Shown: positions 12,669 through 41,145 of the stretch, one piece after another
Layout: every line of letters starts with the position of its first letter
Position numbering within the stretch: the stretch's first letter is position 1
Source of the DNA: Elusimicrobia bacterium RIFCSPLOWO2_02_FULL_39_32
Lineage (GTDB): Bacteria; Elusimicrobiota; Elusimicrobia; 2-02-FULL-39-32
NCBI GenBank assembly: GCA_001800135.1
Contig: MGUU01000010.1
Span: 115,696 to 179,695, forward strand
Reading direction: 5' to 3'
Length of the DNA: 64,000 bases
Notes under the pieces: generated by a model
Databases searched by the model: none
Seen by the model: only the letters and a program-made list of their open reading frames with translations
What the model was told of the DNA's origin: nothing
Translations under genes and position numbers: made by a program

Positions 12669-15600
12669 ATGATTCAGTTTTGGGTTGGACAAAAAAATAG
12701 GAGCTGGTTGAAATTCACTGGAGGTTTGGTGGCGACCAGTTTTTTCTTTACCACAGTCAGCGCGCCATTTGCTTCCGCAAATTTATGGAATGAACGGCGC
12801 AAAGCAGTAGAAGACTTAAAAAAAGAGCCTATGGAAGTTGCTTCTGCTACAGGTCTCCCTTCTTATGAAACAATGGTTGGAAACAGCATCGCCCTGCCTT
12901 CTCCTGAAACTTTGGTAAGTCATGGAGCGATGCAAGAGCTATTAAATAAGGTAAGAGGCGGGAAAATTCAGCATCAACCTAAGATTCATTTAGATCTTCC
13001 TCAAGAATTTGTGAGCCATGTTGAGACTTATGGAGAAGTTGAGCGGCTCTATCTTGCTAATTCTCAAACTTTAAAGTTTTCCAATTTTCTGAACTCATCT
13101 ATTCTGCAACTTACGAATCCCCATTCAACGACCCCTAACTCTAATTCTTTAGTTATCCTTATTCAGGATGCTCATGGAATTTATGGAGTGCAAAAGAATA
13201 TATCAGAGCTGATAAAAGGGTTTAACAATTTTGGAGTAAGGTTGGTAGGTGTAGAGGGCGCTTCCGGAGAGATGACTGGGATTTATCAATGGAGAAATTA
13301 TCCGGATAAAGCGAGTTTAATGAAGGTGGCAAACTATTTATTGGAAAAAGGGCTGTTAAGTGGTGTGGAAGTTGCAGGTTTAGACGGTTCTCCAATCCCC
13401 TCAAATCGTCTGAAGGATGGCAAATTGTGTGAAAATAAAATTCATGACAGATGCCTTAAGAATCATCTTGTATCTGGCGGCGTAGAATTTTATGGAGTGG
13501 AAGAGAAAGAGAACTATTTGGAACAGGTCAAAAGTTTTACAGATACAATCTCTGGGAACAGAGAGGTGACTAGCTGGCTTGAGAAGACTAAAACCGCGAT
13601 TGAGGTTTCTAAAGAGAAAATCTATAGTCCTGAACTTAAAGAGTTAGATAAGAGCAGGGATTTATATGAAAAAGGGGAGTTAAAACTTGGAGAATGGGTT
13701 CAAGGCTTATCTAAGAGAGATTCAAAGATTTTAACTTTTAATTTAAGCAAATATGCAAAGGCTTATGAATTAGAAAGAACAATTAATTTTAAGGAAGTTA
13801 GCGCTGAGCAAAAGAAAATATTGGAGCAGCTCTCACAAAAATTAACTCGGAATCAGTTAGTAGAATTGCTTGAGGAAAGTTTAGCTTATCGTTTAGGAAA
13901 AATCAGCTATGTTGAATTTTATGCTGCGCTTAAAGATCGTTGTGAGAAAGCAAAACTTAAGTTCACTCCAGAATTAGATAAATATATGAAATATGTGGTG
14001 ATTGTAGATGGAATTGATCGGGAGAAACTTTTTGAGGAAGTAAAAAGATTAGAAAATCGAGCAGTACAGGAACTGTTAAAAGGAGCTTCTGCCAATATTA
14101 AATCTTTGGTTCAGATGGATCAGGATTATAGGCTCTTAACTAAAGCGCTTGATTTTAAATTAAGTCCTGAGGAGTGGAGAGAGTTTAATCAAAGAAAAGA
14201 GGAAATAGAGAAAATTGGGATTCAAGTTTTGAATCCTCAAACTCAGCCGGTTCAGGAAGCATTAAAGAATGTCACTCGATTCAATGAATTGTCCCATGAG
14301 AGAAATCATATCTTTGTTGAAAAATTAATTTCTAAATTGGAGGTTAGAAATCTAAATTCTAATAGAGAAGATTTGAATACAGGGTCACGCATTTCAGTGT
14401 TAGTTGCTGGAGGTTATCACACCCGTGGGTTAGAAGAACTATTAAGGAAAAAGGAGATTTCCTACATTGTGATTCGTCCCAATATGGAAAGCTCTGACCT
14501 TAAAGAGGATTATCATCCTTTAAATGCATTTAAAAGAGATGCGCTTCCTTTAGAGAAAATGTTTTATCCAGAGAAGCTCACCATTAATCCCCCCCAAGCC
14601 TTAGAGGGAGCAGTTAAACTTAACCGAGATGATAAACTTGCCAGCATTGTTGGTAGAACTTTTAAGATACTCGCACCAGCTGAAAGCTTATTCAATGGAA
14701 TTAAAGAAAAAATTGCAGAAGCTGCGAATGTTCAGATCAAGGAAGAAGAGTCAGAACAAGGTGTTACTATTGTTAATGTCCGAGATGGCGAAAGGAGCTA
14801 TCGTATTTATAAGACATTGGCTAAGAACAATGAGGTGCTCCAGGAAATATTGAGGAAAGATAAAAATAAAATTAAAGAGACAGAATCAGTTGATTTTAAA
14901 GATGGTTCAAAAAGAGTCCTTGCGCTTGAAAAACCGAGCTTTTTAGCGCAGGTGAAACCTTTTTCTATTCCACCTAAAATTAAGAGTAAAGTACGAAAGG
15001 GATTGATGGTTGTTTATACGCTTCTTGCCACTGCCTGCGGCAATGCTTTTAATATCAATATGAATGCGCCGTTGGTAGATGTTAAAGCAGAGGCGAATGT
15101 AAAGATAGAGAATAATGTGGATATTAATATTAACAATGGTGTTCTCAAAGGAAAAAATGAGTGGGAAATTAAAAGTTCAGATGGAAGGTTTACTGCCAGA
15201 TTTGTGAAAGATATATCTAGCCGATTAATGTATGGACAAGGTGAACTGATAATAACAGATCATGTAACTGGCAGAAAAAAGAAAACAACAATTAGAGGGA
15301 GCATAGAAAATCCTCAGTTTGTTGGCAGGAGACTAGTACTTTTAGTAAAGGATGAACCTTTTGAAAAAGATAAGAATGATGGATTTGGCCCTAGCGTATT
15401 TATTAAAACCTATGCTGCTATGGAAGGTGACGAAGAATATATTATTACTTATGAGAAAAAGAGATATAAAAATATTAAAAATTATGAATTTAGTTCTGAT
15501 CAAGAATATGTTGTGATTCATGAGGATGATCAAGGGAGATCATCCTTACATGTACGCAGGCTTAGAGATGGTATGTATATGGGTGGTTCCAACATCTTTT

Positions 15601-18600
15601 TTAACAATCAGCCCTTATTAAATGCAATGCCCATGGTATTAGAAAAAAAAGAGGATGGAGATTATGTCATTATTCGCAATCAGCAGGGGCAAAGCACAAT
15701 CTATAAATTGAATAAAAATGGCGGTTACATATTAGTAACTAACGTAGAAACACTTTCTCAGCTTCAAGCAGGAGAGATAGATATTGTGACTGGCAAAGCT
15801 CTAAGTGCAATAGAAACAAATACTATATCTTTACCGTTGGTTGGAAGAGATAATATGGGAATTACTGCCACAAAAAGACGCGGGGTAGCGATTTTTTATG
15901 ATAAAGACGAAAAGGGGAATCCCATTACTATTGTCAAATATTCGCCTGAAACACATGTAGAGCGTGAGTTTATTGCAAGCGGGGTATGGCACAGGGTTGG
16001 CGGGGAGAAAGGCATTATAATCAATAAGCCATACTATTTTTCAGTAGATGGGGATAAAGACCAGGAGATTATTTTGGAAATTAAGGATGATAAACTTAGG
16101 GGTCATGGATTCTCTCTTAGAAAATTAGAAAAGGGTAAATGGAGAACAGGAATTCTCTCCCCAGATTTACGCCTAGCTGACACTACTTTAGGTCAGATGA
16201 GGGTTAGAGAAATCAACATTTATGCTAATAATCCTCAAGCTGAAGGCACATTCCGTGTGCGCGGTTTTGGCGATTATTCCAAACTTTTTACTGATCCAAC
16301 CAACATGTTTACTGAAAATGCTAACCATACGCTTTCCTTAAGCGACCGTGTGATCACTGGAGCGCGTGATTTCTTTCTTGGGTTTGTAGGGATTCCTACA
16401 GAAGCTAAAGAGAAAGGGGCTCCTGTATATGTAAAGCAATCTCCAAGGCCAAGAGCAGATTATTCTGTGACTGGGGATAGGTATATATCTGAAATGATGC
16501 GAGGAGAAGTAGTAGTCATGGGAAAGCAGAAAATTGATCCAGACGTTTTCCCTAGAACTAGAGATAATTCATTATTATTTTTCTTAATTCTTTTGTCGCC
16601 TGCAATAATACTAATAATATTAGCTTATATGAGGCATAAAGATATTGAAGCTAGAAGTGAAGATTCTCCCGCAGCTATTCTTTCTAAAAAAATTGCAAAA
16701 TACCAATTTGATAAACTTATCGCTGCTCCATGGATAGAATCTGCTTTATTTCAATTTATTCCTCTAACGATTGCAGTTATATTTTTTGGATTAGAGTTTG
16801 GAACCATTGGTTTTTCGATTGTAGCGTCGATGGGAGTTGCTGTTAACGCTACGTTTTTTTCGATTCACAATGGGATTCCTCGTCACATTAGTATGCTTAT
16901 AGAAGGTATCTTGGTACTTCCCATTAGAGGAGCCATTTTTGTTTTTTCATTTGCTCTTGCTCTGCCAATGGTTTCTTCTCTTTATTCCGCACCCTTTTCT
17001 TTATTCATGTCTCTCACATTCGCTTATCTTATAGAGGCATTCAGTATTTCAGTCTATAATCTACTTGTTTTATCTTTATCGGATCAGTCTATAGGTAGAG
17101 AACTAACTAAAAGTGATTCTGGCAAAAGTCATGATTTGCATGATAATCCGGAAACAAAGGATGAATCTGGTCAGGCGAAAGTGGAGTTTGGAGTAATCCT
17201 TGCTGGCATTGCTTTAGGCTTAGTGCTCTTGTTGACAATGTGTGCTCTTCCTATGCATGCTCAGGCAGCAGTTTTACTTTCACCAGATGCAACATCATCT
17301 CTAGCTACCTCTAAATTGAATGTAACTGGGATGATCGTGACTGGGATACTATTGATGGTAGGTCTGTGGGGTGTAAGTAAATTAAGTAAAAATCAATCCA
17401 CATTTAGTTTTGAGGATGATTGGAATGGTTGGAATGATGTGCTAGCAAGGGCAGATGCAGTAAAAAAAGACGAACAGCCTGCATCCAATCCTTTAATAGA
17501 TATTTTAAAAGATGAAGGTGGACAAGCGAAAGTGGATTTTGGAGTAATCCTTGGTGTCATGGCTTTATGCGCAGTGATCTTTTTGTCAATGTGTTCCCCT
17601 TCTTATGGGGCTGTTTTACTTTCACCAAATGCAACAGCCTCTGTAACAACTTCTGCAGCTACCTCTTCCTCTATATTGGATGGTTCTATATTAGGATGGA
17701 TCGCCCATGGAATAAATTCTGGAGGTCTTGGATCTATTGTGATTATAGGGTTTGTAGCTGCACTGGCACTCTTTTTAGCTTGGAAGTATGACAGTTTGCC
17801 ATTTGAAGGTAGAAATATTTCTGATGATTGGAAAGTGCCAGGAGGAAGACTCTTCTCCTTTTATGCTCCTTTGGCTGGGGTTGTACTTTTGTTCAACACA
17901 GCCTGCGCCGCGATCGGGTTGCCAAATTTAATTCCTGCTACAACGCCAACTCCTGCTGTAACTGCAAGCGCTGTGGTATCACCTACTCCTGCGACGACTC
18001 CTCAACCTACAGAGACACCAGCTGCTGTTATAACAACTCCTCAACCATCGCAAACTCCTCAAAACATCGCTACTGATTCTATAGTGGTAGAGTATGCCGG
18101 TAATTATCCTCACAAGTATCCTCTTTTTGAGCAGAATCCAAATAATCCTGTTACTCATGTTAGACAGAATTTATTAGCCAGCGCAGAGAATGAGCATTTA
18201 AGAGCTGATGCCATAGGTTTTAGTTATTATGGCCCACATATATCAGGTGGACCTGGTTTTAAACTTATTTTAACAGAGCCTGGGACTATGAAATATAAAC
18301 ATTCTTTTTGGGTTGATTACACAAGGGGATATCCTTTAAAAGTTCATATAAGTCCAAATGGCAAAACTGTTGGTGTGCAGTTTAATACATATAATCGGAT
18401 CAAGGGTGTAGAGACTCACTATTACGAACTTTTTGATTTAAATGGGAATAGGATTTTACAGTTTCCTGTTCAGGATAAAAATTATCGTTATGATCGTCAG
18501 GTGAATGCTGCGATTAAAGATGTAGTAATAGATGATACTAATATTTTATTTACTTACCAGGTGGTCAGGGTAGGGATGGATAATGGATATGACAGAGGAT

Positions 18601-20429
18601 TTAAAGTGATGGGATTGGATGAGACACTTTCTATTCCTTATCTTGGTTCACAGGAGGAGATAAAAGGGGTCATAGATGCTAAATTTGGAGATTTTGTGAA
18701 AAATGAGCAGAGTCATTATCTGTTTTCTCAAAGCAATGACCAGAAATTAGAGGTCTATGTGGATAATGACAATGTTGAAAAAAGGCATAGTTTGATTCTG
18801 AAGAATTTAGAGACTGGATTAGAAAGAGTAATTTTTACACATGGTTATGATGATTATAGAACCAGTGTTTGGGACGTAAGATTCAGTCCGAACAGCCAAT
18901 ATTTAGTGATGAATCGCAATGATGATTCTATGTTTAGTACTTTGATTGTTTTAGACAGGAATGGAGATGTGGTCTTTGAATATTCCGGAAGGGGTCAGGA
19001 AAAGATGATCATCCATAACTTTACTGTCAACAATGATTCGATTGTAGTGAAATATGGAGCGGTTATACCTGAGACAAATCCCAGTGGATCTACATCTTAT
19101 ATATATCCTTATGGAACAACTGAGCAGATAGAGACATTGCCATTAGGTTCTTCTAAGACCTCACTATTACAGTCAGCAAAAGATTTTATCGCAGGATTTA
19201 CTGGCGATTTGCCAGCCATGGCAGCGGAGAATGAAGCAACCTTTTCAGCATCTCCAAAACCTGAGCCATCTCCCATGCAAAAGATCAATGAATTAATTAA
19301 GAATAATGACGGTAAAGCGATGAGTGAATATGGCTTGATTATAGCTTTAGCTGCAGCGCTTGTGATTATAAATCCTCCTATTGGTTTGACCATTTTAGGA
19401 GCTGCAGTAGCTTTGCATTTTGCGGCTCGAGTTTTTAGGACAATTCAAGATAAAAAGGCTAAAGTAAAAGTGCATGCTGCAATCTCTAAAAAGATTGATG
19501 CCGCAAAAGATGTAGAGGTAGGGAAGCTAGATGAGAAAATCATAGCAATTGCTTTAAAGGGTACAGCTAATGATCTTGATTCTGCTACCAAGGTAGAGCT
19601 AAAAAGACATATTGAGAAATCTCTTGCTGAGATTGGATCCTATGAAGATAGGGTAGAAGAAGAAAGAGTAGTGACAGAGAAGTTACAACAAACTTTATTT
19701 GCAATTTCTGCAAGTGGAGGAGATGTTGAACTTCTTAAGAGAATTTTTAAGGAACAAGAGGTGGTTCCAGCCAAAGAATTGCTTCAATATTTTGATGTTA
19801 GAGCTAAAAGAGCTCATAAGGAAGATTATGTAAAGGCGCAATGGATATTAGGTGGATTGAAATTAAATCAAGAGAATGCAAGAGCTTTTGAAGCAGCTTA
19901 TAATAGAGGCGTGATTCTCTTAAGTTGGGCTAAGAAAATGGTTCAACAGGCTTCAATCTCGATTGCTAAACTTGGAAAAGGTTTTAAAGTGGTAGATGCC
20001 ACTCCTCTTATGAATGGCAGTGAAGAAGAGAAGGCAAAAACATCTCTTGCTATTAAGAAGTTAGCAGAGTCAGGTGAGAAGTTTGCGCTTCAGGCAAAAG
20101 GGTATGACCGCGCAACCATTGAGCAGAACTTACATCAAACTAAAGAATTAGAAGGAGTAGATATTACTAACATCCTTTATCTCCAAGCGCAACAGGGAGA
20201 AAAGATGAGTTTAGATGAGCTATTTAAGGAGTTGGATGGAATGAAGCTCGCTGGTTTAGGAGTGAAGGTCATCACCACAAATCTTGACAACTGGGATTGG
20301 GAGACGAATGAGAATAAGAGTATTGAGATCTACTATCTTTTGGAAGCTGCGTTTCTAAAACCAGTGCTTAAACTCAAAGAACTCTCAGACGAACTCGCTC
20401 ACGAGAGATTCCTAAAGATCAACGCATAA
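12669..20429 (+). CDS. Giant mosaic membrane/surface protein (2,586 aa), function unknown
   Basis: Uninterrupted 7,761-nt ORF with a GGAGGTG SD (12656..12662) 6 nt before the ATG. Domain order, N- to C-terminal: an N-terminal signal peptide (...SAPFASA/N); a TraB/Tiki-like motif set; an internal lipobox-like segment; beta-rich PD40-like repeats; a polytopic TM block (about aa 1298-1480); two tandem 2-TM modules and a third module each starting with a Flp-prepilin-like motif; a Pro/Thr linker; and a C-terminal helical/coiled-coil region. Confidence 0.9.
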   Translation: MIQFWVGQKNRSWLKFTGGLVATSFFFTTVSAPFASANLWNERRKAVEDLKKEPMEVASATGLPSYETMVGNSIALPSPETLVSHGAMQELLNKVRGGKIQHQPKIHLDLPQEFVSHVETYGEVERLYLANSQTLKFSNFLNSSILQLTNPHSTTPNSNSLVILIQDAHGIYGVQKNISELIKGFNNFGVRLVGVEGASGEMTGIYQWRNYPDKASLMKVANYLLEKGLLSGVEVAGLDGSPIPSNRLKDGKLCENKIHDRCLKNHLVSGGVEFYGVEEKENYLEQVKSFTDTISGNREVTSWLEKTKTAIEVSKEKIYSPELKELDKSRDLYEKGELKLGEWVQGLSKRDSKILTFNLSKYAKAYELERTINFKEVSAEQKKILEQLSQKLTRNQLVELLEESLAYRLGKISYVEFYAALKDRCEKAKLKFTPELDKYMKYVVIVDGIDREKLFEEVKRLENRAVQELLKGASANIKSLVQMDQDYRLLTKALDFKLSPEEWREFNQRKEEIEKIGIQVLNPQTQPVQEALKNVTRFNELSHERNHIFVEKLISKLEVRNLNSNREDLNTGSRISVLVAGGYHTRGLEELLRKKEISYIVIRPNMESSDLKEDYHPLNAFKRDALPLEKMFYPEKLTINPPQALEGAVKLNRDDKLASIVGRTFKILAPAESLFNGIKEKIAEAANVQIKEEESEQGVTIVNVRDGERSYRIYKTLAKNNEVLQEILRKDKNKIKETESVDFKDGSKRVLALEKPSFLAQVKPFSIPPKIKSKVRKGLMVVYTLLATACGNAFNINMNAPLVDVKAEANVKIENNVDININNGVLKGKNEWEIKSSDGRFTARFVKDISSRLMYGQGELIITDHVTGRKKKTTIRGSIENPQFVGRRLVLLVKDEPFEKDKNDGFGPSVFIKTYAAMEGDEEYIITYEKKRYKNIKNYEFSSDQEYVVIHEDDQGRSSLHVRRLRDGMYMGGSNIFFNNQPLLNAMPMVLEKKEDGDYVIIRNQQGQSTIYKLNKNGGYILVTNVETLSQLQAGEIDIVTGKALSAIETNTISLPLVGRDNMGITATKRRGVAIFYDKDEKGNPITIVKYSPETHVEREFIASGVWHRVGGEKGIIINKPYYFSVDGDKDQEIILEIKDDKLRGHGFSLRKLEKGKWRTGILSPDLRLADTTLGQMRVREINIYANNPQAEGTFRVRGFGDYSKLFTDPTNMFTENANHTLSLSDRVITGARDFFLGFVGIPTEAKEKGAPVYVKQSPRPRADYSVTGDRYISEMMRGEVVVMGKQKIDPDVFPRTRDNSLLFFLILLSPAIILIILAYMRHKDIEARSEDSPAAILSKKIAKYQFDKLIAAPWIESALFQFIPLTIAVIFFGLEFGTIGFSIVASMGVAVNATFFSIHNGIPRHISMLIEGILVLPIRGAIFVFSFALALPMVSSLYSAPFSLFMSLTFAYLIEAFSISVYNLLVLSLSDQSIGRELTKSDSGKSHDLHDNPETKDESGQAKVEFGVILAGIALGLVLLLTMCALPMHAQAAVLLSPDATSSLATSKLNVTGMIVTGILLMVGLWGVSKLSKNQSTFSFEDDWNGWNDVLARADAVKKDEQPASNPLIDILKDEGGQAKVDFGVILGVMALCAVIFLSMCSPSYGAVLLSPNATASVTTSAATSSSILDGSILGWIAHGINSGGLGSIVIIGFVAALALFLAWKYDSLPFEGRNISDDWKVPGGRLFSFYAPLAGVVLLFNTACAAIGLPNLIPATTPTPAVTASAVVSPTPATTPQPTETPAAVITTPQPSQTPQNIATDSIVVEYAGNYPHKYPLFEQNPNNPVTHVRQNLLASAENEHLRADAIGFSYYGPHISGGPGFKLILTEPGTMKYKHSFWVDYTRGYPLKVHISPNGKTVGVQFNTYNRIKGVETHYYELFDLNGNRILQFPVQDKNYRYDRQVNAAIKDVVIDDTNILFTYQVVRVGMDNGYDRGFKVMGLDETLSIPYLGSQEEIKGVIDAKFGDFVKNEQSHYLFSQSNDQKLEVYVDNDNVEKRHSLILKNLETGLERVIFTHGYDDYRTSVWDVRFSPNSQYLVMNRNDDSMFSTLIVLDRNGDVVFEYSGRGQEKMIIHNFTVNNDSIVVKYGAVIPETNPSGSTSYIYPYGTTEQIETLPLGSSKTSLLQSAKDFIAGFTGDLPAMAAENEATFSASPKPEPSPMQKINELIKNNDGKAMSEYGLIIALAAALVIINPPIGLTILGAAVALHFAARVFRTIQDKKAKVKVHAAISKKIDAAKDVEVGKLDEKIIAIALKGTANDLDSATKVELKRHIEKSLAEIGSYEDRVEEERVVTEKLQQTLFAISASGGDVELLKRIFKEQEVVPAKELLQYFDVRAKRAHKEDYVKAQWILGGLKLNQENARAFEAAYNRGVILLSWAKKMVQQASISIAKLGKGFKVVDATPLMNGSEEEKAKTSLAIKKLAESGEKFALQAKGYDRATIEQNLHQTKELEGVDITNILYLQAQQGEKMSLDELFKELDGMKLAGLGVKVITTNLDNWDWETNENKSIEIYYLLEAAFLKPVLKLKELSDELAHERFLKINA
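17160..17860 (+). repeat. Tandem intragenic duplication (2 copies, about 351 nt period) of a Flp-like leader plus 2-TM module
   Basis: Copy 1 begins gatgaatctggtcaggcgaaagtggagtttggagtaatccttg (17160). Copy 2 begins gatgaaggtggacaagcgaaagtggattttggagtaatccttg (17511). The protein copies also share AVLLSP(D/N)AT(S/A)S, a second TM helix and a DDW(N/K) motif. Confidence 0.75.
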
Positions 20430-20518: not shown

Positions 20519-20779
20519 TCAAATTCGGTAGATTTCTCGCCGATGTCCTACCTTTACTATTTCTATGGTTTGGTGGGTATCGTTTATTGAATAAACGATA
20601 CGCCAATCCCCTTGCCGAATGCGGTATTTTTCTTCTCCGGAAAGTTTTTCACACCCATGGGGTCTTGGCTCTATAGAAAGTGATTGAACTTTACTAACAA
20701 TTCTTGTTAAGTCTATCTTTGGAACCAGTCTTAATTCCTTTTCAGCGCTCCTTTTAATGAGAACCTTATAGGATGCCAT
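20519..20779 (-). CDS. RelE/ParE-family toxin
   Basis: The best start is MASYKV (ATG at 20779), giving 86 aa; the ORF track's upstream extension is unlikely. The C-terminal part (YRIRQGDWRIVYSINDTHQTIEIVKVGHRREIY) is typical of RelE/ParE. It overlaps the upstream antitoxin gene by 14 nt. Confidence 0.75.
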   Translation of the reverse strand: MASYKVLIKRSAEKELRLVPKIDLTRIVSKVQSLSIEPRPHGCEKLSGEEKYRIRQGDWRIVYSINDTHQTIEIVKVGHRREIYRI

Positions 20780-20993
20780 CTCGTTTAAGCTCTTTGAGTA
20801 CGGTTTCGAAAGGTCTAACGGGTTCCTTGCTCCTTTTGTGGAAGGCATCTAAATCTGCCTTATCTTCACGGAGCGAAAAAGTTAAAGCATCGTTTACAAT
20901 GTTCGAGAGACTTTTTTCCGTAAGAGCAGACTTAACTTTAGCAGCTCTGTAAAGCTTAGGGTTTAGATAAATGGTTGTTCTAGTGAATGACAT
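20766..20993 (-). CDS. Ribbon-helix-helix (CopG-like) antitoxin
   Basis: The start is placed at MSFTRTTIYL because a strong AGGAGGTG SD lies 5-6 nt upstream of that ATG. The N-terminal beta-strand plus two helices (TTIYLNPKLYRAAKVKSALTEKSLSNIVNDAL) is RHH-like. It is translationally coupled to the toxin. Confidence 0.7.
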   Translation of the reverse strand: MSFTRTTIYLNPKLYRAAKVKSALTEKSLSNIVNDALTFSLREDKADLDAFHKRSKEPVRPFETVLKELKRDGIL

Positions 20994-21052
20994 AATCCCA
21001 CCTCCTGATAGCATTATAACATTAAAACGTTAAAATGTCAAAAATGTTATGA

Positions 21053-28716: not shown

Positions 28717-30671
28717 GAGACCGGCTGATAAACTAAATAAAGCAGATGATCTCCATCTGTTAGATGAGATCCTGTAAAATAGTTTCTAAACATAAAAGTT
28801 GGTATTTTTTTATTTGGTTTTGAATCGCAGGTTGCGCAATAGAGCTCCCATCCAGGGTAATAAGGCATTGTAAAAATAACTAACTTAGCAGTCTCAAGAA
28901 TAAATTGGCTGATAATTTTATGGTTGTAAATTTTTATAAACGAAGGTGAAGAAAATTCTAATTTTTTTTGATTTTTAGAAATTGGTAGATTTTCTTTATT
29001 TTCTAAACTGAATGCAGACCCCAATGCTTCTAGATTTCTATAAATTTTTAAATCTTTCTCCTGACCGATTAGTTTCCAATCAGATCCCAAAAAATCTTCT
29101 GTTAGAAAGTGTGTAATATTCCAAAAATTAATAAGAGGTTTAGCTTCCTCAATCGAGACTGATGAAGCAAGGGCTTGATAAAGCTCCTGAAAGGAGTTGA
29201 GGGCTAAAGGTTCTCCGGATGGATTAATGGTTTTAATCCTGTAGGGTAGGTTTGTGAGGTCAAATAGATAGGCTCTAAATCGCATCTGGGCATCTTGAGA
29301 GGACATTCCTGCCAATCTTCTCTGGGAGTTCACCTTATGAGAAAGAAGAACAGTCCCAGGACGATCCTTTAATACGGATTTTATCGCATTAAAAGTGACC
29401 TGATAGTATTCAGGAATAATAGTTGGTGTAATATTTTTAGAATAAAACCAAAGTTCTAAGGAGAGAGCAAGGGTTAAAAGTAGCAGGATAAGTTTTTTAA
29501 AATTTTTATTTAGCTTTGCTGTTTGAATCGAGTGAAAACCAACAAGCATTAGAAGCGCGATTGAAGAGGTTGTTAAGTAAAGTGCCACAGGAGGATATCG
29601 GAAAAGATGAAGGAAAGAAATTTTTGCATAAAAGAATTCAAAAAAAGGACAGTATTCCCCCATGGACCAAAGAATTCCAATAGCGCTTAAAGACACTACC
29701 AGCGCTATTAATTTTTTATATTTTGATATTAATGAGAAAAGTATAAGAAAGGATGCGGTAAAACCCCACCAAGCGCTCCAAATCCAAAAGAATTTTTCTC
29801 CTGTAAAACGATCTGAATGGTGTAAAATTCTAAAAGGGTAAATTAAACCAAACAGACTATCTAAAGGGAAGGAATAGGTTACAGCTTCTGAAAAGGAAAT
29901 CCCAGGACCTCCGCGAATTGAGTTCTGCAAAAGTTCTAAAGTAGGCATCCATTGCGGGGCGCTCATAAAAATAAAGAGAATCAGAATTTTTATCCAATCC
30001 AAGATATTTTGTTTGAATCCGAATTTTCCATTATCTAATGCAATGTTGGACTTAAAGGAAGTAAAAATAAAAGAGAATAAAAATGCGAAAATTATCTGTA
30101 ATACTAAAATTTGCGGGAATCCAGAAAAGAAAGAAAAGGTAAGTACCAGACTGCAAAAAAAGAGCTGGGTCAGATTTTTTTTAGAGATTTTTTGAATGCA
30201 GAATATCAAAAGCCATGGCAGCCAGATCAAACTTCCTAAAACACTTAAGAACTCATGTCGAGTCAATGAATAGCCATTGTAGGCAAAAAGAACACTTCCT
30301 GAAAAGCTGATAATTTTAGAAAACCCGCATTTTTTTGCGAAAAGAAAAAATCCTAAAGAGGCTAGGGCATAGTGAAGAAAATGAAAACATTTCAGGCCTA
30401 TAACAAAATGAAAAATCCAAAAAAGGATAGTAAAAGGGTATAAAATGGCAGACTGGCAGTTCGCTAAAAATGGCATACCCCCCATTTCATAGGGGTTCCA
30501 CAGGGGCATAAGACCAGACTGAATCATTTGCGCGCTTAAAGATCTCCAAGGATGGAAAAGGTAGGTGATATCTCTCATAAAAAAAGTGTGTGAAGAAGTC
30601 AGGGTTCCAGAGAGAAAAAAAATTGGCAAACAAATCAGTAAAAGAATAGAGGTTTTATCTCTTTTGTCCAT
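28614..30671 (-). CDS. Polytopic GT-C-like membrane protein (YfhO-like), paralog 2
   Basis: 685 aa with the same architecture and motifs as 26515..28716 (LWNPYEMGGMPFLANCQSAILYP; PYYPGWELY). Confidence 0.55.
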   Translation of the reverse strand: MDKRDKTSILLLICLPIFFLSGTLTSSHTFFMRDITYLFHPWRSLSAQMIQSGLMPLWNPYEMGGMPFLANCQSAILYPFTILFWIFHFVIGLKCFHFLHYALASLGFFLFAKKCGFSKIISFSGSVLFAYNGYSLTRHEFLSVLGSLIWLPWLLIFCIQKISKKNLTQLFFCSLVLTFSFFSGFPQILVLQIIFAFLFSFIFTSFKSNIALDNGKFGFKQNILDWIKILILFIFMSAPQWMPTLELLQNSIRGGPGISFSEAVTYSFPLDSLFGLIYPFRILHHSDRFTGEKFFWIWSAWWGFTASFLILFSLISKYKKLIALVVSLSAIGILWSMGEYCPFFEFFYAKISFLHLFRYPPVALYLTTSSIALLMLVGFHSIQTAKLNKNFKKLILLLLTLALSLELWFYSKNITPTIIPEYYQVTFNAIKSVLKDRPGTVLLSHKVNSQRRLAGMSSQDAQMRFRAYLFDLTNLPYRIKTINPSGEPLALNSFQELYQALASSVSIEEAKPLINFWNITHFLTEDFLGSDWKLIGQEKDLKIYRNLEALGSAFSLENKENLPISKNQKKLEFSSPSFIKIYNHKIISQFILETAKLVIFTMPYYPGWELYCATCDSKPNKKIPTFMFRNYFTGSHLTDGDHLLYLVYQPVSWKIGMILFIFTILILTLFFMRIHLKCLTHQLRY

Positions 30672-32046
30672 TTATCTTTTCCTGATTTTTATAAAAAATA
30701 TAAGGGTTTCTATCTAAAATAATTTTTTGCAGATTTTGTCTTTCTTTTAAAAGGTGCGATTTTTTTGAATTTTTATTATATTGAATTTGGAGAATATGAG
30801 AAAGAGATAAATAATGTTGAAGAGGAAGATCATCCCATTTAAGAGCGGAGCGTAAGAATTTTTCAGCGGAAGGTAAGTTCTCTTTTTGATAAGATTCTTT
30901 TGCTTTTAAAGAATAATTGAATGATACTAAAGGTTTGATGCCTAATTCCCAGCCAAAGAATAAAATAAAGGGAAAAAAAATTGAATAAAAGGTTATGATT
31001 AAATTTTTTTTTCGTTGAATAACTCTATCCTTAATGGGTTCGCTTATGGAAGCAAGAATCAGAAAAAATAGAAGAAAGAAACCGGGAACATTTAGAGAGT
31101 AATCTAAAAGGCATTGCGTAAAAACTGAAATCAGACCAATTTTTAGGATTAGATTAGAGCTATTTTTTAATTCTTTAAAAATAAAATAAAATAAAAAAGT
31201 TGTCGCAAGAGTTCCTATTTCACATATATTTTGTAAAAAAAAGTTATGTACATAAAGGGATTTTAATCCGGGTTCTAAATAGATTGGAGAAACTTTTTCA
31301 AATGATCCTGGTCCTGATCCAAAAAATGGGTATTGGATTGCAATTTCAAATGCTGCTTTCCACCACCTGACCCTATCATTAATTGAACTCATCCGCCAGT
31401 GGCTTAAAAAGAAAAGTATCCCAGCCATTAAGCATAGAGTTAAGAACAAGAATAGGATTCGTTGGTTTTTTTCATTTTTATTAATGTTTCGAGTCAAATA
31501 TATCAGCCCAACAGATACCCCCAGAAGTCCTGCAAAAGATTCTGTGAAGTAGAAAGAAGCTAAGGCACAGCATAAAATAATTAAGGAAAATATTTTTATG
31601 TCATTATAGAAAGAAAGAGAGAAAAATAACCCTAGAATGGACAATGAACCGATGAAATTAGATTTAAGAAAAAATTCTTCTCTGGGATAAGGTGTTGAGG
31701 GATAGATTTCTATCAGTAAGGAAAATAATAAAAATAGAGAGGTCATAATGAGAATCGTTTTTTGTAATCTTATTTTATTAATTTCATTATATTTTTTAAC
31801 TATGAAATATAAAGAAAAGGTGTTAAAGATTAAAAGTGCATTAGTCCTGGCTTCTTCTTTAAAAGGTGAGAGTATCATGGAACCTACAAAGAAAATAAGA
31901 AATAAAAGAAAACTTAGAGGTAGGTCAGGAAAAGTGTGGTTTTTTTCTAAGAGAGCTATGGAGCTTAGGAAGAAATATAGTATTAAAATCAAAAGAAAAA
32001 TAAGGTGACTGGACCAAGGATCCCAGAGGAATCTATAGAATGGCAA
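30655..32046 (-). CDS. O-antigen ligase-like (Wzy_C domain) membrane protein
   Basis: 463-aa polytopic protein. The periplasmic-loop motif FFGSGPGSFE...YVHNFFLQNICEIGTL is typical of WaaL/PglL/Wzy_C proteins. Confidence 0.65.
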   Translation of the reverse strand: MPFYRFLWDPWSSHLIFLLILILYFFLSSIALLEKNHTFPDLPLSFLLFLIFFVGSMILSPFKEEARTNALLIFNTFSLYFIVKKYNEINKIRLQKTILIMTSLFLLFSLLIEIYPSTPYPREEFFLKSNFIGSLSILGLFFSLSFYNDIKIFSLIILCCALASFYFTESFAGLLGVSVGLIYLTRNINKNEKNQRILFLFLTLCLMAGILFFLSHWRMSSINDRVRWWKAAFEIAIQYPFFGSGPGSFEKVSPIYLEPGLKSLYVHNFFLQNICEIGTLATTFLFYFIFKELKNSSNLILKIGLISVFTQCLLDYSLNVPGFFLLFFLILASISEPIKDRVIQRKKNLIITFYSIFFPFILFFGWELGIKPLVSFNYSLKAKESYQKENLPSAEKFLRSALKWDDLPLQHYLSLSHILQIQYNKNSKKSHLLKERQNLQKIILDRNPYIFYKNQEKINGQKR

Positions 32047-32119: not shown

Positions 32120-34093
32120 TTAATATGGAATAATTTTAGGCGTTACAAAGACAAGCAGCTCTGCTCTGGTTTTTGAAGTGCCAGTTTTTTTGAATAGGTG
32201 TCCAAGAATCGGGATTCTGCCTAGGATGGGTATATAAGCTTTTTGATCTGATTCAAGTTCTGAGATCAATCCTCCAATCACAAAGGTTTCCCCATCTTTT
32301 ACAATCACAGTGGTATCAGCTTGCTGGCTCGTAGTTTTTGGTATTCCAATGGATGTGGGCTGAGAAGAAGTAATGTCTGGCACAATTTTAAGTGTAATTC
32401 TTCCATCTGCATTGATAGTAGGCGTAACCGTAAGAGTAATGCCAGATTTAGCTGTATTCACTTTTTGAGAAGTTAGAGTTCCAGCATTCGTTAGCTGCGT
32501 TTCAGTAGTAATATAAGGTTCTGAGATTTCAGATTTGATGGAAGCGGGTTTGTTATTTAGAGTGGCCACTTTTGGATTAGATAGAAGTTTAGATTTATTT
32601 TTTTGCGCAAGAGCGCTTAATGCGGCATTCAGGCGCACTACATCTTTAACAAATCCAAAAGAAAGGCCCAATCCTTGACCTGGAGTAAAACCTGCGCCAC
32701 TGGCTTCTAAATCCGAGCCACCTGATGGATTAAGAGGAGTTCTAGTCATAAGACCAATGCTTCCAGATCCTGGAGTTTCTGCATCAGCGCTGCTTGCGGC
32801 TTTGGATGCTTTTGCCGCTCCAATGGTGATCATTTGGTTGCCTGATTTATCTGTGTAAGCAGCCCCCCATGTAATCCCTAAATCTAAACTTTTACCAAGA
32901 GTCACCTGTACAATTTTTGCTTCAATCATTACTTGAGGAGTGGGTTTATCTAAATCGCCAATTAGTTTATTGACTAGTTCAATGCCTTCAGGAGTGTCTG
33001 TCACAATAATGGAATTTGTCCTGTCATCTACTAATGTTTTACCTTTACCTGAGAGCGTTGATAAGATAGAGATTAACTGGGTGTTCACGTCGCCTGCTTT
33101 CGCGTAATTGACTTGAAATATTTTAGTCACTGAGATCGCTTTAGTTTTATATTGATCGAATTCTTCCGCAGTCATTATTTGTAAAATATTTTTACCCAGA
33201 GAGATAATTTTTAAATTTTTTAAAGTTAGAATAGTGCTGACCGCGTCTTTAAAAGGAACATCTTTTAATTGGATTGAAACTGTCCCAGAAACATTACTGC
33301 CAAATACCACATTCACCCCAGCTTTATCTCCTAGAATTTTAAAAAGGTCTTTAATTTCAATATCAAAAAAATCTAATGTCACTAGTTGTCTGCCAAAAAA
33401 GGTAGTGGGATCAGATGGATCATGCAGGTTTTCCTTGAGGATAGGCTCATTATTTAGAGGTTGAATTGGAGTTGTTTGCGATGTTTCTTGCGTGGAGGTT
33501 TTGGGTAAAATTAAAGAAGGTGTTGGAGAAACAAGAGGAGTAGATAAAGGAAGTGTGGTGGAATGTTTTATTAAAGTTGTTTCTTCATTTGGAGGTAATT
33601 GAGAATTTGTAATTGTTGTGAGCATTGGTTCCACCCCTTCTTTTTCCATTTTTTTAGTGATGACCCAAATGGTCTCCCCTTCAGTTTTAGTTTCAAATTC
33701 CACAGGCGCTCTTAGTTCCATGACTACACGGGCAATTTTAACCGGTTCATTTTGGAATTGTCCTGAACGGATCCTGGTAAAAATAGGATTTTTTTCAGGG
33801 CTGATCACTTTTGTTTTCCAGTCATTTTCAGTTTGGATGAGTTCTACAACCAATCTGGGAGGAGCACCTACTTTAAAAACATTAAATGGGGCTAATTTAT
33901 CTAAAGTGATTGAAACCATATTGTCTTTAAGCTGAACTTCTTTTAATATTGAAAATTTAGTTTGAGCTGACTCTGTAGCAGTCATGTCCACATTAACGCT
34001 ATGGAGAGCGTGAATGTTTAAAAAAATTAGGGCAGAGACGAATAATATTAAAAAGGTAAGAAACTTTTTTACCATTTTAAAAGAGTTTATCAT
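32120..34093 (-). CDS. pilQ: Type IV pilus secretin PilQ (AMIN domain + secretin)
   Basis: 657 aa. Elements in order: a signal peptide, an AMIN-like N-domain, a Ser/Thr/Pro linker, and a secretin C-domain (ITLTVTP.INADG.ITL...VKDGETFVIGGL...IPILG.IPILG.LFK). It follows pilMNOP. Confidence 0.85.
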   Translation of the reverse strand: MINSFKMVKKFLTFLILFVSALIFLNIHALHSVNVDMTATESAQTKFSILKEVQLKDNMVSITLDKLAPFNVFKVGAPPRLVVELIQTENDWKTKVISPEKNPIFTRIRSGQFQNEPVKIARVVMELRAPVEFETKTEGETIWVITKKMEKEGVEPMLTTITNSQLPPNEETTLIKHSTTLPLSTPLVSPTPSLILPKTSTQETSQTTPIQPLNNEPILKENLHDPSDPTTFFGRQLVTLDFFDIEIKDLFKILGDKAGVNVVFGSNVSGTVSIQLKDVPFKDAVSTILTLKNLKIISLGKNILQIMTAEEFDQYKTKAISVTKIFQVNYAKAGDVNTQLISILSTLSGKGKTLVDDRTNSIIVTDTPEGIELVNKLIGDLDKPTPQVMIEAKIVQVTLGKSLDLGITWGAAYTDKSGNQMITIGAAKASKAASSADAETPGSGSIGLMTRTPLNPSGGSDLEASGAGFTPGQGLGLSFGFVKDVVRLNAALSALAQKNKSKLLSNPKVATLNNKPASIKSEISEPYITTETQLTNAGTLTSQKVNTAKSGITLTVTPTINADGRITLKIVPDITSSQPTSIGIPKTTSQQADTTVIVKDGETFVIGGLISELESDQKAYIPILGRIPILGHLFKKTGTSKTRAELLVFVTPKIIPY

Positions 34094-34145
34094 ATTTTAA
34101 ATTTCCCCCGTTATTAAATCTGATTTAATTTTATTTTCCTATGAC

Positions 34146-34646
34146 TTATCTTTTAATAACATGTAATTCTTTAATCGTTTTATTTTTTCCATAAAGAACA
34201 ACACTTGTTTCCTTTATAATACCGGTTATGTTTTGAATGGTTTGACTCCTCTTATCATACAGTTTCCCTGATTTAAGGGTAAAGGACTCCCCATCTCTGG
34301 ATAATATTAATGCTATTTTACCATCTTTATCTTTTAAAATCCCCTTTAATTCTAGCTGTGAAAAATTTTCAGCGCTTCTCTGCGGGTCTCTTCTGGTTTG
34401 AGATTTTATTCCTTTGGAGCTGGAAGAATCTCCAATCAAAGCAAGAAATGGATCTCTTCCTGAACTTACGCCATAAATAAAGCGCGAGATAGGTTCCTTT
34501 TTAGCGCTTTCAAGTTGAGGGGCAATTTTTTTCTGAACAGAAATTTGTGTTTCCGGGTAGAGTATATTCAAGTTTTCTTCTTCATTTTTTTTGGAACAGG
34601 AATTTAAAGTTAAAAAGATAAATAATAAATAAAAAATTTTAATCAT
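34146..34646 (-). CDS. pilP: PilP-like pilus assembly lipoprotein
   Basis: 166 aa with a lipobox (LTLNSC). The C-terminal beta-domain pattern is LKGILKDKDGKIALILSRDGESFTLKSG.... It lies between pilO and pilQ. Confidence 0.6.
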   Translation of the reverse strand: MIKIFYLLFIFLTLNSCSKKNEEENLNILYPETQISVQKKIAPQLESAKKEPISRFIYGVSSGRDPFLALIGDSSSSKGIKSQTRRDPQRSAENFSQLELKGILKDKDGKIALILSRDGESFTLKSGKLYDKRSQTIQNITGIIKETSVVLYGKNKTIKELHVIKR

Positions 34647-34657
34647 TTTAAAAATAT

Positions 34658-35206
34658 TTACCCTTTAGAGGTATAAATAAGAAAAGTTAATTCACCGCTC
34701 ACCTCATTTTCTCCAGTTTTTGAGTTAACGGTGGATGACAATTTAGAAAATCTACTTGAGAATATCCTTTCTAGCTGACCGATTTCAGTTAGAAAAGTAG
34801 CCAGATTGTGATAGGAAGCGGAAAAGGGAATCGTATAAGTATGTTCTATATAATAATCTTTGCTTGTTTGATTTCCCGGAGCGAGTCTTGTCCATCTAAT
34901 GCTGTGAGAATCCATTTTTTTTGAAAGCAGACGTATTAAAGAAGGCACATCTTTATCTTTGGGTAATTTTTTTTCAACCTCTAAAATTTCCTGATTCAAA
35001 ACAGCAATTTCTTCCTGGAGTTTTGGCAATCTTGCCGTACGACCTACGGACTCCTGATATTCTTTTTTAATCTGCTCCAGCTCGCCTTTTAAAATTTTTT
35101 TCCTTTCAGAGAGTGGGTTAAAAAGATATTTATAAAAACCGAAGTTTATGCCTATGATTAGAATCGGTATAAGGATGATTAAAAATTGCAGTTGTTTTTT
35201 ATCCAT
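34658..35206 (-). CDS. pilO: Type IV pilus assembly protein PilO
   Basis: 182 aa with a single N-terminal TM helix, a coiled coil and a ferredoxin-like C-domain. The assignment rests partly on its position between pilN and pilP. Confidence 0.65.
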   Translation of the reverse strand: MDKKQLQFLIILIPILIIGINFGFYKYLFNPLSERKKILKGELEQIKKEYQESVGRTARLPKLQEEIAVLNQEILEVEKKLPKDKDVPSLIRLLSKKMDSHSIRWTRLAPGNQTSKDYYIEHTYTIPFSASYHNLATFLTEIGQLERIFSSRFSKLSSTVNSKTGENEVSGELTFLIYTSKG

Positions 35207-35207
35207 T

Positions 35208-35783
35208 TTAATTTTGAGCCGCCGGCGGACAATAAGTAAAATTTAAAGTAAATTTAAAGTAGGATGTCCCGGGCAAAGAAGTTTCATTCACCTCTATCGC
35301 GCTGAGAGATATATTTGAAAATAGTTTTGTGTTTGATTCCATCCTTTGCAGCCAATCCGCAATAGAATCTGTAGTAAGAGAATTTGAAACCAAGATAATG
35401 CCCAAGTTTTTTTGTCCGTCTTCACTTAAAGAGAGCGCATCCAGCCAGATGTCTACGGGAAGAGTTTGATACAATGTTTCCATAAATTTTGGGTAGAGGA
35501 GACGGGCTTTTACTAATTCAACCACAGTATTTTTTTTAGCATTGAGAATATTTTTTTGAGAGTCTAATTGTTCAACTTGAGCTACTTTTGCTTTGATCCC
35601 TGCCAGCTGGGATGACCATCTTTCTTTTTTCTTAAGCTCTTTCTTATAGTCATTCAGTTGAATAAAATAAATAGAAGTACCGGCAATGATCAGGATCCCT
35701 ATAATTGCATATCCTAAGATTACCCAATCTAATCCCTTATCCTTTTCTTGCAGCTCTTTGGGAAGAAGGTTAATTTTTATCAT
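35208..35783 (-). CDS. pilN: Type IV pilus assembly protein PilN
   Basis: 191 aa with the conserved N-terminal MIKINLLP motif that binds PilM, then a single TM helix and a coiled coil. Confidence 0.7.
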   Translation of the reverse strand: MIKINLLPKELQEKDKGLDWVILGYAIIGILIIAGTSIYFIQLNDYKKELKKKERWSSQLAGIKAKVAQVEQLDSQKNILNAKKNTVVELVKARLLYPKFMETLYQTLPVDIWLDALSLSEDGQKNLGIILVSNSLTTDSIADWLQRMESNTKLFSNISLSAIEVNETSLPGTSYFKFTLNFTYCPPAAQN

Positions 35784-35796
35784 AAATTGTTTTGCT

Positions 35797-36942: not shown

Positions 36943-37025
36943 TTATAAATTAAAGAACTACTCCGTTCTGTAAAAATAAAGAAAAGAGTTTTGTGATTTG
37001 AATATAGCAGAAGATTATTCCTTTG

Positions 37026-38546: not shown

Positions 38547-38550
38547 ATTT

Positions 38551-40392: not shown

Positions 40393-41134
40393 TAAAGGAA
40401 CCTAAGGATAAAAAAGGTCCAAAAGGAATAGTGGAATTAGATTCTAGTTTTTTTAAAATTAGAAAAGGCAGTATAAAAAAAGTTCCTGAGGCACAGGCTA
40501 AGATCAAGGCAAGATTTGTTCCTTGCCAACCCAGCCAACATCCAACCGCACCCATCAGTTTTATATCCCCTAAACCTAAAGCTTCTTTTTTAAATATTTT
40601 TTCTCCTGACCAGCGTACAAGAGTCATGAGCATTAACCCATAAAAGCCTCCCAATAAATTTTGCCAGATCTGCGTTATTCCTCCCTGTTGAGATAAGGAG
40701 AATAAAAGTCCTCCAGCAGCTAAAATAATGATTAAATCATTGGGAATGATCCCATATTCTTTATTGTTTTGAAAATAAGTTATAAGATCAATTCCACTGA
40801 TCAAAAAAAGGATAAATGAATAGATAAGATAAAGAATAACTATTTGATTAGGCTCGGTTTGAAATTTTAAACTGACAAGTAGAAATAAAATTCCACAACT
40901 TAATTCTATCAATGGATAAACAACAGAAATTTTTTGTTTGCAGAACCGGCAAAGACCTTTAAGCAATATAAAGGATAAAAGAGGAATATTATCGCACCAC
41001 GGAATAGGATGACCACAGGTAGGACAGAATGATTTTGGACTCCAAAGGGATAACTGTTTTGGAGTTCTATAAAAATAGACATTGGCAAAGGAACCAAAGA
41101 TTAGACCGTAGCAGAAAATAGTAAAGAAGTTCAT
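40373..41134 (-). CDS. pilD: Prepilin peptidase / N-methyltransferase (A24 family)
   Basis: 253 aa with an N-terminal Cys cluster (CPTCGHPI...CRFCKQKI). The two catalytic Asp contexts are present (SGIDL... and GLGDIKLMGAVG). Confidence 0.9.
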   Translation of the reverse strand: MNFFTIFCYGLIFGSFANVYFYRTPKQLSLWSPKSFCPTCGHPIPWCDNIPLLSFILLKGLCRFCKQKISVVYPLIELSCGILFLLVSLKFQTEPNQIVILYLIYSFILFLISGIDLITYFQNNKEYGIIPNDLIIILAAGGLLFSLSQQGGITQIWQNLLGGFYGLMLMTLVRWSGEKIFKKEALGLGDIKLMGAVGCWLGWQGTNLALILACASGTFFILPFLILKKLESNSTIPFGPFLSLGSFSALFII

Positions 41135-41145
41135 TATTGAAAATC

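Follow-up and report, generated by a model that had tools for sequence, protein, structure and literature searches.

The locus

The window analysed here is a stretch of 64,000 nucleotides (nt) of contig MGUU01000010.1, from Elusimicrobia bacterium RIFCSPLOWO2_02_FULL_39_32. On its forward strand lies one uninterrupted open reading frame (ORF) of 2,586 amino acids (aa), which encodes a mosaic envelope protein of an Elusimicrobia lineage, below called the giant protein. Far inside this protein sit three modules that resemble the start of an Flp prepilin, the first two of which may serve as internal export signals that are cut. The motifs at their core read TKDESG/QAKVEFGVILAGIALGLVLLL (motif 1), LKDEGG/QAKVDFGVILGVMALCAVIFL (motif 2) and KNNDG/KAMSEYGLIIALAAALVII (motif 3), with a slash at the candidate cleavage position. 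All coordinates are collected in Table 1.

An earlier note on this DNA had drawn attention to these motifs. They are present in the translation as it said, save that motif 3 ends at aa 2234, three residues short of the 2237 given there.

The same uninterrupted ORF, in a syntenic setting, is found in independently made assemblies: an Elusimicrobia metagenome-assembled genome (MAG) at NCBI, two Logan assemblies and an ENA contig. An assembly chimera is therefore ruled out.

Resemblance to Flp pilins

In Pfam, the best-scoring family for the protein as a whole is Flp_Fap (PF04964). On single motifs, it scores 17.1 bits for motif 1 and 16.0 bits for motif 3. The match spans positions 2-32 of the 46 in the Pfam profile, and about 34 of the 53 positions in a local hidden Markov model (HMM) of Flp. 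Covered are the hydrophilic leader and, of the mature pilin, the first ~30 residues; the C-terminal part of Flp is unmatched. No pilin or signal model of NCBIfam matched.

The search in the reverse direction returns Flp pilins only. A profile made from six copies of the module, run against 5.8e9 proteins, retrieved just six proteins, all of them Flp pilins of 51-66 aa and five of them carrying PF04964. The E values range from 4.2e-6 to 7e-2 at a database size of 5.8e9. When this same collection was searched with internal fragments of the giant protein, it missed the query's own cluster, which a local hmmsearch scores at 92-267 bits; negatives from it for the interior of the protein are untrustworthy.

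The alignments themselves are close. Pilin P0046 reads MKLSTWFKDESG/QAMSEYGLIIALIAV where motif 3, with its leader, reads ELIKNNDG/KAMSEYGLIIALAAA. Similarly, P0045 has WKDESG/QGMVEYGLILALIAL where motif 1 has TKDESG/QAKVEFGVILAGIAL. The run AMSEYGLIIAL in module 3 is identical in all 11 positions to the Flp pilins P0046, P0047 and P0049.

An HMM built from the six retrieved pilins gives motifs 1, 2 and 3 scores of 26.5, 18.7 and 24.4 bits, and the two motifs of the ortholog described below 28.3 and 25.8 bits; these pilins were chosen by their similarity to the modules, so the model is biased towards them, but the control helices are still valid. As controls, about 150 other hydrophobic helices from some 40 homologous giant proteins score at most 0.1 bits, with the exception of one paralog module at 8.7 bits.

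Two pattern scans of public collections complete the picture. In GTDB genomes, LIKN.DG[QK]A is followed by a helix only at the known paralog locus, in addition to 34 chance matches in soluble proteins. In JGI metagenomes, all six matches to [ILF][ILF]K[DN]E[DGE]GQA..[ED][YF] are N-terminal parts of Flp or TadE. Everywhere outside this lineage, the leader motif with its helix is N-terminal in these two scans. Within the window, no further Flp-like ORF was found in any frame.

Judging by these comparisons, the modules very probably descend from Flp prepilin genes.

Copies of the modules

Motifs 1 and 2 form a tandem duplication, with 49% identity over 65 aa (E 2e-15). This is visible in the DNA as well, as a 97-nt repeat that is 80% identical and a 45-nt repeat that is 82% identical, spaced 351 nt or 117 codons apart.

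One relative is the ortholog P0001 (2,571 aa, 86% identical), recovered from three independent assemblies with its synteny kept. It retains modules 2 and 3, and the module 1 cassette is absent. This absence and the duplication of motifs 1 and 2 together argue for two independent captures, one of which was later duplicated. The three modules of the earlier note thus reduce to two that are independent. At the site of the missing cassette, ~100 aa of NHL-like repeats are found in P0001 (aa ~1490-1600, locus L001), in place of window positions 17154-17504.

The ortholog's genome also encodes a paralog, P0005, of 3,901 aa. It has one extra copy of the module, LIKNEDG/QARIESSLILAI...VAHA/AVLLS. P0005 in turn has an ortholog, P0006.

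Parts of the modules

In all copies of the type of modules 1 and 2, once aligned on the glycine of the cleavage-type site, identical parts come in identical order. A leader hhK(D/N)E(G/D)G is followed by Q-A-x-x-(E/D)-(Y/F), a stretch of ~18 hydrophobic residues, a conserved Cys and a Pro. After this come A-x-A/A, a Ser/Thr-rich loop, a second transmembrane (TM) helix and a loop that contains DDW.

In module 1, this takes the form of ETKDESG/QAKVEF (Gly1501), a hypervariable helix, Cys, Pro, AQA/A (A1533/A1534), the Ser/Thr loop, TM7 and a cytoplasmic loop. Module 2 has DILKDEGG/QAKVDF (Gly1618), a hypervariable helix, Cys, Pro, SYG/A (G1647/A1648), the Ser/Thr loop and TM9. In the ortholog, module 2 is G/QANVEY...PPAQA/A.

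A Pro at -4 to -6 precedes the second site in all five copies of this type, be it AQA/A, AQA/A, AHA/A, AFA/A or SYG/A. The form AxA/A is kept in four of the five, the fifth being the SYG/A of module 2. The Sec signal at the start of the giant protein has the same Pro...AxA style as the ending of these internal modules. Compared with the organisation of a Sec signal, the modules differ in their net acidic n-region, their h-region of ~18-20 residues and their internal position.

Taken over all copies, the leaders are KDESG, KDEGG, KNNDG and KNEDG. The acidic residue at +5 and the aromatic residue at +6 are E and F in module 1, D and F in module 2 (E and Y in the ortholog) and E and Y in module 3. 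The hydrophobic runs that follow the motifs are 17-24 residues long.

Module 3 is built differently. A proline-rich linker leads directly into Met2203-QKINELIKNNDG/KAMSEY..., which has the appearance of a complete Flp start. Its second hydrophobic segment aligns with the single N-terminal anchor of P0042, a 383-aa protein that is a stand-alone homologue of the C-terminal domain. In an AlphaFold2 (AF2) model of aa 2190-2586, the predicted local distance difference test (pLDDT) is below 50 across module 3, at which a hairpin is not distinguished from a single span.

Between modules 2 and 3 lies TM10, which is best read from its sequence as a third, degenerate module copy in which a Cys resembles that of a lipobox. 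It has GG upstream, and a Pro/Thr linker and an orphan domain of ~400 aa downstream. As a lipobox, its NTAC is atypical at -3, whereas the paralogs P0005 and P0006 have a canonical ILSC at this place, within AILSC/(T/A)AIGLP. The Cys of modules 1 and 2 stand in LTMC and LSMC, which are lipobox-atypical at -1. By its sequence, the TM10 region looks like an embedded lipoprotein signal.

Conservation around the cleavage-type sites

Gly(-1), one of two positions singled out in the earlier note, is invariant, as are Lys(-5) and Ala(+2), in six of six module copies. The other position, the acidic residue at +5, is kept in the 86% ortholog, where +5 and +6 of module 2 change conservatively from D and F to E and Y.

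Around these positions, conservation is very uneven. Between the window protein and P0001, the module 2 leader is identical in 10 of 11 positions (IDILKDEGGQA and RDILKDEGGQA), against 7 of 18 in the Flp-like helix that follows; upstream of the leader, the two are unrelated. For the other helices, the same two proteins are essentially identical over TM2-TM5, identical over TM10 and 79% identical over TM9. The pair P0005 and P0006 repeats the pattern, with 10 of 11 positions identical in the leader, 3 of 18 in the helix and 4 of 20 upstream.

Pooled over both pairs, the leader from -9 to +2 is identical in 20 of 22 positions, against 18 of 76 in the flanks (20 aa upstream and the 18-aa helix), for a Fisher p of 1.4e-8.

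A variable helix held between two conserved cleavage-type motifs is, on the evidence of these alignments, the signature of a disposable signal peptide and not of a packed structural helix. The helix would be disposable because it evolves at the pace of a cleaved signal peptide.

Topology

The topology was derived by counting lysines and arginines (K/R) beside each hydrophobic segment, following the positive-inside rule and not a dedicated predictor. After TM1, TM3, TM5, TM7 and TM9 there are 7, 1, 5, 4 and 4 of them; in the alternate loops there are 0, 0, 1, 0 and 0. Since the N-terminal signal exports the large N-terminal region, these charges predict a cytoplasmic position for the leaders of modules 1 and 2, and a position outside for the AxA sites, the Ser/Thr loops and the domain behind the Pro/Thr linker. 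Prepilins are cleaved at the membrane's cytoplasmic face (PMC4471445).

The C-terminal tail has five K/R just past the membrane. It is predicted to be cytoplasmic because of these charges, because stand-alone homologues of it lack a signal peptide, and because relatives carry cytoplasmic enzymes downstream of their TM regions. By parity, this would put the module 3 leader on the periplasmic side. The charge counts agree with a caveat in the earlier note, which likewise had the first two motifs in the cytoplasm and the third outside.

Other features of the giant protein

The first 640 aa are the sole region that the window protein has in common with ~38 other giant proteins, of 1,500-4,500 aa, from Elusimicrobia and Omnitrophota. 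Five residues of this N-terminal domain are invariant, D127, H129, E156, R505 and H544 in fragment numbering, forming a D-x-H, E, R, H pattern. An AF2 model has a pLDDT of 71.5. It yielded no significant fold match, the sequence has no match in the PDB, and no Pfam match was found in 16 family members. Among sub-threshold Foldseek matches are HopBA1, the erythromycin esterase EreC and RRSP. From this model, our guess would be a hydrolase fold of the EreA/ChaN/Tiki-like type.

In a number of relatives (P0004, P0012-P0014, P0018, P0019, P0021, P0023 and others), the same N-terminal domain and TM region are fused to metabolic enzyme domains. Downstream and cytoplasmic in these relatives are hexokinase, glycogen phosphorylase, AceK regulatory, NUDIX, PPDK, PGK and UDPGP domains. 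The family is fusion-prone, because unrelated enzyme domains have been joined to one and the same N-terminal domain.

For the block of five helices ahead of the modules, a CPBP/Abi-type intramembrane protease in TM2-TM5 was considered on the basis of motifs; this guess was dropped as there is no Pfam support for it.

The ~400-aa domain after the Pro/Thr linker, called a beta-propeller in the earlier note, has no Pfam match. Among 1.84e9 representative proteins, the linker and this domain have no homologues beyond their own 50%-identity cluster. An exhaustive HMMER scan of the same representatives with aa 1480-2586 found this cluster, plus four weak matches to the last ~180 aa only.

The last ~170 aa form an alpha/beta unit with an AF2 pLDDT of ~90 and weak, Rossmann/PIN-like fold matches only. 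Homologues of this C-terminal domain stand alone without a signal peptide (P0041 and P0043) or behind a single TM helix (P0042). The extreme C-terminus is conserved across homologues as R(F/I)L(K/L)I(N/F/Q)A.

Table 1. Positions of features in the window. A slash in a sequence marks a candidate cleavage position.
Feature	Position (nt)	Strand	Remarks
Giant ORF	12669..20429	+	2,586 aa
Sec-type signal peptide of giant ORF	12669..12779	+	aa 1-37, ...SAPFASA/N; read from the translation; three K/R on N-side
N-terminal domain	12789..14588	+	aa 41-640; family-defining; predicted periplasmic
Five-helix block, TM1-TM5	16572..17081	+	aa 1302-1471; from hydropathy and loop charges
Module 1, 117-codon cassette	17154..17504	+	Flp HMM 26.5 bits; Pfam 17.1 bits
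Motif 1	17154..17234	+	aa 1496-1522
Module 2	17505..17780	+	Flp HMM 18.7 bits
Motif 2	17505..17585	+	aa 1613-1639
TM10	17853..17921	+	aa 1729-1751; ...KVPGG/RLFSFY before, LFNTAC1746/AAIGLP at end; from positional alignment of modules
Pro/Thr-rich linker and ~400-aa domain	17922..19268	+	from the translation; predicted periplasmic
Module 3	19275..19436	+	Met2203-QKINELIKNNDG/KAMSEYGLIIALAAALVII (Gly2215), NPP, second hydrophobic segment aa 2239-2256; Flp HMM 24.4 bits; Pfam 16.0 bits
Motif 3	19299..19370	+	aa 2211-2234
C-terminal helical region and alpha/beta domain of ~170 aa	19437..20426	+	ends ...RFLKINA; predicted cytoplasmic
Last ~170 aa	19920..20426	+	alpha/beta unit
ParE-family toxin gene and overlapping small ORF	20519..20848 and 20766..21014	-	directly downstream of giant gene
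Wzy_C genes (three)	30655..32046, 37026..38546 and 38551..40392	-	O-antigen-ligase-like; one with TPR
Type IVa pilus genes pilQ, pilP, pilO, pilN, pilM, pilD, one pilin and pilC	32120..43039	-	pilin ...|FTLIELM
Prepilin peptidase, PilD architecture	40373..41134	-	A24_N_bact and Peptidase_A24, GLGDIK motif; candidate processing enzyme
Outer-membrane biogenesis cluster	51006..63957	-	lpxB, lpxI, lpxA, fabZ, lpxC, lpxD, OmpH-like chaperone, BamA, TamB-like protein (1,245 aa)

Candidate enzymes and neighbouring genes

The prepilin peptidase that the earlier note placed in the window does have the domains of a PilD-type enzyme. A comparison is offered by another locus, L006, where P0048 (VQDEGG/QALAEYGLIIAL), one of the six retrieved pilins, sits in a textbook series flp-tadE-rcpC-tadZ-tadA-tadB-tadC. 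The peptidase closest to it is likewise of PilD-type architecture, at 25% identity to the enzyme in the window. As a PilD-type peptidase is found beside a true flp-tad locus, the architecture is compatible with Flp-type substrates. Tad systems have been reported in Elusimicrobia (PMC6668835).

Three Wzy_C genes lie among the pilMNOPQ and pilD genes. These may be involved in O-glycosylation of pilin or other proteins, and might bear on the loops of the giant protein that are rich in Ser, Thr and Pro.

Directly downstream of the giant gene come a gene for a ParE-family toxin and a small ORF that overlaps it. At the ortholog's locus, HicA/HicB are found upstream as well. Further along is an outer-membrane biogenesis cluster, which also encodes a TamB-like protein; the organism is therefore two-membraned.

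Interpretation

The reading we favour, at a probability of about 0.45, is that modules 1 and 2 derive from Flp, act as internal export signals and are cut, and that module 3 is an uncleaved anchor. In it, homology, duplication, the pattern of conservation and the topology read from charges are taken as established; from these, we infer each cleavage event and the identity of the protease.

The course of events would be as follows. N-terminal modules of Flp prepilins were captured by gene fusion into a mosaic giant protein, after which one of the copies underwent tandem duplication. Modules 1 and 2 would insert N-in/C-out as internal export signals with a disposable helix. A prepilin peptidase would act on the cytoplasmic face, at the class III site ...K(D/N)E(G/D)G/Q-A, cutting after Gly1501 and Gly1618. 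On the periplasmic face, signal peptidase I would probably cut the Pro...AxA/A site after A1533 and G1647. Candidates for the cytoplasmic cut are GxGD prepilin peptidases, either the PilD of the window or a TadV from elsewhere in the genome. The precursor would thus be processed at modules 1 and 2 in the manner of a polyprotein. Module 3 would be a more recent Flp capture that has retained its original Met, and which serves in the opposite orientation as an anchor before the cytoplasmic C-terminal domain.

That a GxGD prepilin peptidase and signal peptidase I act together, and so excise whole internal Flp-type signal helices from the giant envelope protein, is a tentative proposal and on balance a doubtful one. 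The products in that case would be an N-terminal periplasmic hydrolase-like unit with a membrane base, small units with two TM helices, a unit resembling a lipoprotein and a C-terminal unit in the cytoplasm, along with hydrophobic, Flp-like peptides 29-32 aa long that would be released.

A fair number of points weigh against cleavage. The glycines in question are at 1501, 1618 and 2215 of 2,586, so the motif is not N-terminal, and class III signals are N-terminal by definition, with leaders of 6-26 aa (PMC4471445). A literature search turned up no class III signal peptide described as internal, which leaves the proposal without precedent. For the whole protein, the Flp_Fap score is 20.9 bits, short of the gathering level of 32.2, and Flp_Fap does not match motif 2; the Pfam check suggested in the earlier note thus gives the right family, and matches to motifs 1 and 3, but not a score above the gathering level, nor a match to motif 2.

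The comparison also has little depth, consisting of one ortholog at 86% identity and one paralog pair, P0005 and P0006. In P0006, LIKNEDGQA is kept and the acid at +5 is lost, so the +5 check proposed in the earlier note comes out well for the ortholog but not here. The loss is not fatal to cleavage, because Glu5 is always dispensable for processing; it is the leader Gly that is absolutely critical (PMC4471445). A conserved leader with a variable helix could also be produced by gene conversion or recombination between paralogous modules, although this would still imply constraint on the leader across paralogs.

The surroundings do not help either. No tad genes are found within the 64-kb window, or within 10 kb of the ortholog and paralog loci. 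The complete type IV pilus assembly set that the earlier note saw in the window comes down to pilMNOPQ, pilC and one pilin; no pilus assembly ATPase is encoded within the window. Nor is a prepilin peptidase the sole candidate, given the signal-peptidase-I-type sites and the lipobox-like Cys seen in the sequence. The (-3,-1) rule of signal peptidase I is itself permissive.

Two further points concern the modules as such. The prediction places the module 3 leader on the periplasmic, non-cleavable side unless the module is made separately; this motif is well kept and yet on the wrong side, so a good motif alone is no proof of cleavage. In addition, the released fragments would be hairpins of two TM helices and not pilin-like subunits. 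Cleavage, if any, would therefore be polyprotein maturation and not pilus biogenesis. The fragment sizes calculated in the earlier note, 1,501, 117, 597 and 371 aa for cuts at all three glycines, are arithmetically correct.

The best surviving alternative is that nothing is cut, and that the Flp-derived helices are ordinary start- and stop-transfer TM segments. The leader would then be kept for a non-proteolytic reason: as a topogenic cap, as a binding site, or through gene conversion between paralogous modules. We consider this rather doubtful. It is favoured by the missing precedent for internal pilin-type cleavage, by a family that joins many foreign modules without a sign of processing, by the near-perfect Flp motif of module 3 on the side where it is predicted to be non-cleavable, and by fragments that are unlike pilins. 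What it does not account for is a Flp-like helix that is hypervariable (3-7 of 18 positions identical) while other TM helices are 79-100% identical, nor the conserved cleavage motifs on both flanks of it, which is the pattern of a discarded signal peptide.

Processing could also involve the Sec pathway only. Signal peptidase I would then cut modules 1 and 2, TM10 would perhaps be handled as a lipoprotein-type signal, and the Flp leader would be an uncut relic. The sites AQA/A, AQA/A, AHA/A, AFA/A and SYG/A, with their Pro at -4 to -6, do mirror the N-terminal ASA/N of the protein itself. In P0006, the module has drifted to a classical n-h-c signal peptide without Glu5, and in the paralogs of TM10 a canonical ILSC lipobox stands before a Pro/Thr linker. 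Unexplained, however, would be the net-acidic leader hhK(D/N)E(G/D)GQA, with 20 of 22 positions identical amid a diverged zone, as Sec n-regions require positive charge only. The h-regions, at ~18-20 residues, are also long for efficient signal peptidase I cleavage. This makes the Sec-only explanation unlikely.

A highly unlikely alternative is that the modules belong to separate products, either through internal translation starts, such as Met2203 for module 3, or because the ORF is a mis-join of neighbouring genes. Met2203 is 13 residues before Gly2215, exactly as in an Flp leader, and paralog modules have a Met at -11 and -9. If module 3 were synthesised separately, its conflict with the predicted topology would disappear. 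A search for internal ribosome-binding sites ahead of modules 1-3 found none that is convincing, with only a weak GAG upstream of Met2203; since a clear Shine-Dalgarno sequence is missing from many of the window's genes, this absence is uninformative. On the other side, the ORF is intact in the window, the ENA contig, the NCBI MAG and the two Logan assemblies. Modules 1 and 2 have no in-frame ATG or GTG within 30 codons upstream, and the one TTG, 12 codons before Gly1501, has no ribosome-binding site ahead of it.

Chance resemblance of ordinary TM helices to a short hydrophobic Flp model, for which one could cite the Pfam scores below gathering, the unmatched motif 2 and the spurious matches that such HMMs draw, is effectively refuted by an E of 4e-6 in 5.8e9 sequences with only true Flp pilins matched, the 11-of-11 identical run AMSEYGLIIAL, the ~150 control helices at no more than 0.1 bits and the fact that the hydrophilic leader KDE(S/G)G is matched too.

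Significance

To our knowledge, class III pilin-type signals are N-terminal by definition and in every search tool, be it PilFind, FlaFind or the Pfam architectures. Prepilin peptidases are regarded as dedicated to pilins. If modules 1 and 2 are indeed cut, they would be the first internal class III signal peptides, and the substrate range of prepilin peptidases would be widened to the maturation of polyproteins. For the giant multi-TM proteins that uncultured Elusimicrobia and Omnitrophota encode, they would also be the first cleavage sites that are defined and testable. This addresses the question of whether such proteins work whole or in pieces.

A conserved internal copy would suggest that fused genes retain their own export signals, which then thread successive modules across the membrane. 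The finding would be categorically new if cleavage were demonstrated. Even without any cutting, a leader-helix module from a pilin is clearly reused here for membrane insertion at an internal position.

Comparison with known systems

The nearest known counterparts are the Flp/Fap prepilins and TadE/TadF pseudopilins of Tad (type IVb/c) pili (PF04964 and PF07811). Like the modules, these have a leader ...KDE(S/G)G ending in the cleavage-site Gly, and G/XXXXE(Y/F) followed by ~20 hydrophobic residues. Their motif is N-terminal, whereas the modules lie 1,500-2,200 residues into a protein of 2,586 aa, and Flp pilins are ~50-90 aa long. Modules 1 and 2 additionally have an AxA site and a second TM helix downstream, and there is no tad locus nearby.

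Pilin-type signals on large non-pilin domains are known from Streptococcus sanguinis PilB and the sugar-binding proteins of the Sulfolobus bindosome (PMC8179133, PMC4471445). These resemble the situation here, but they have a single N-terminal signal with its cargo outside the membrane. In the giant protein, the signals are internal and repeated, with further membrane spans after them.

A mechanistic likeness is found in eukaryotes and viruses. Polyproteins of the flavivirus type contain internal signal sequences that are cut by the host's signal peptidase, after which signal peptide peptidase, a GxGD protease, acts on the leftover signal helix. Shared with modules 1 and 2 are the N-in/C-out internal helices, the cleavage site on the far side and the GxGD class of aspartyl proteases, to which prepilin peptidases also belong. 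The likeness is mechanistic only, and we know of no bacterial example.

Finally, giant multi-TM proteins of Omnitrophota ('Archaeovorins') have been proposed to be cleaved into several products at sites that are not known, as deduced from their C39 and S8 protease domains (bioRxiv 10.1101/2023.11.21.568195). Like the window protein, these are very long mosaics with many TM segments, from related uncultured phyla. The window protein is much smaller and belongs to another family, with its own N-terminal domain, and in contrast it has specific candidate sites of the signal-peptidase type that are visible.

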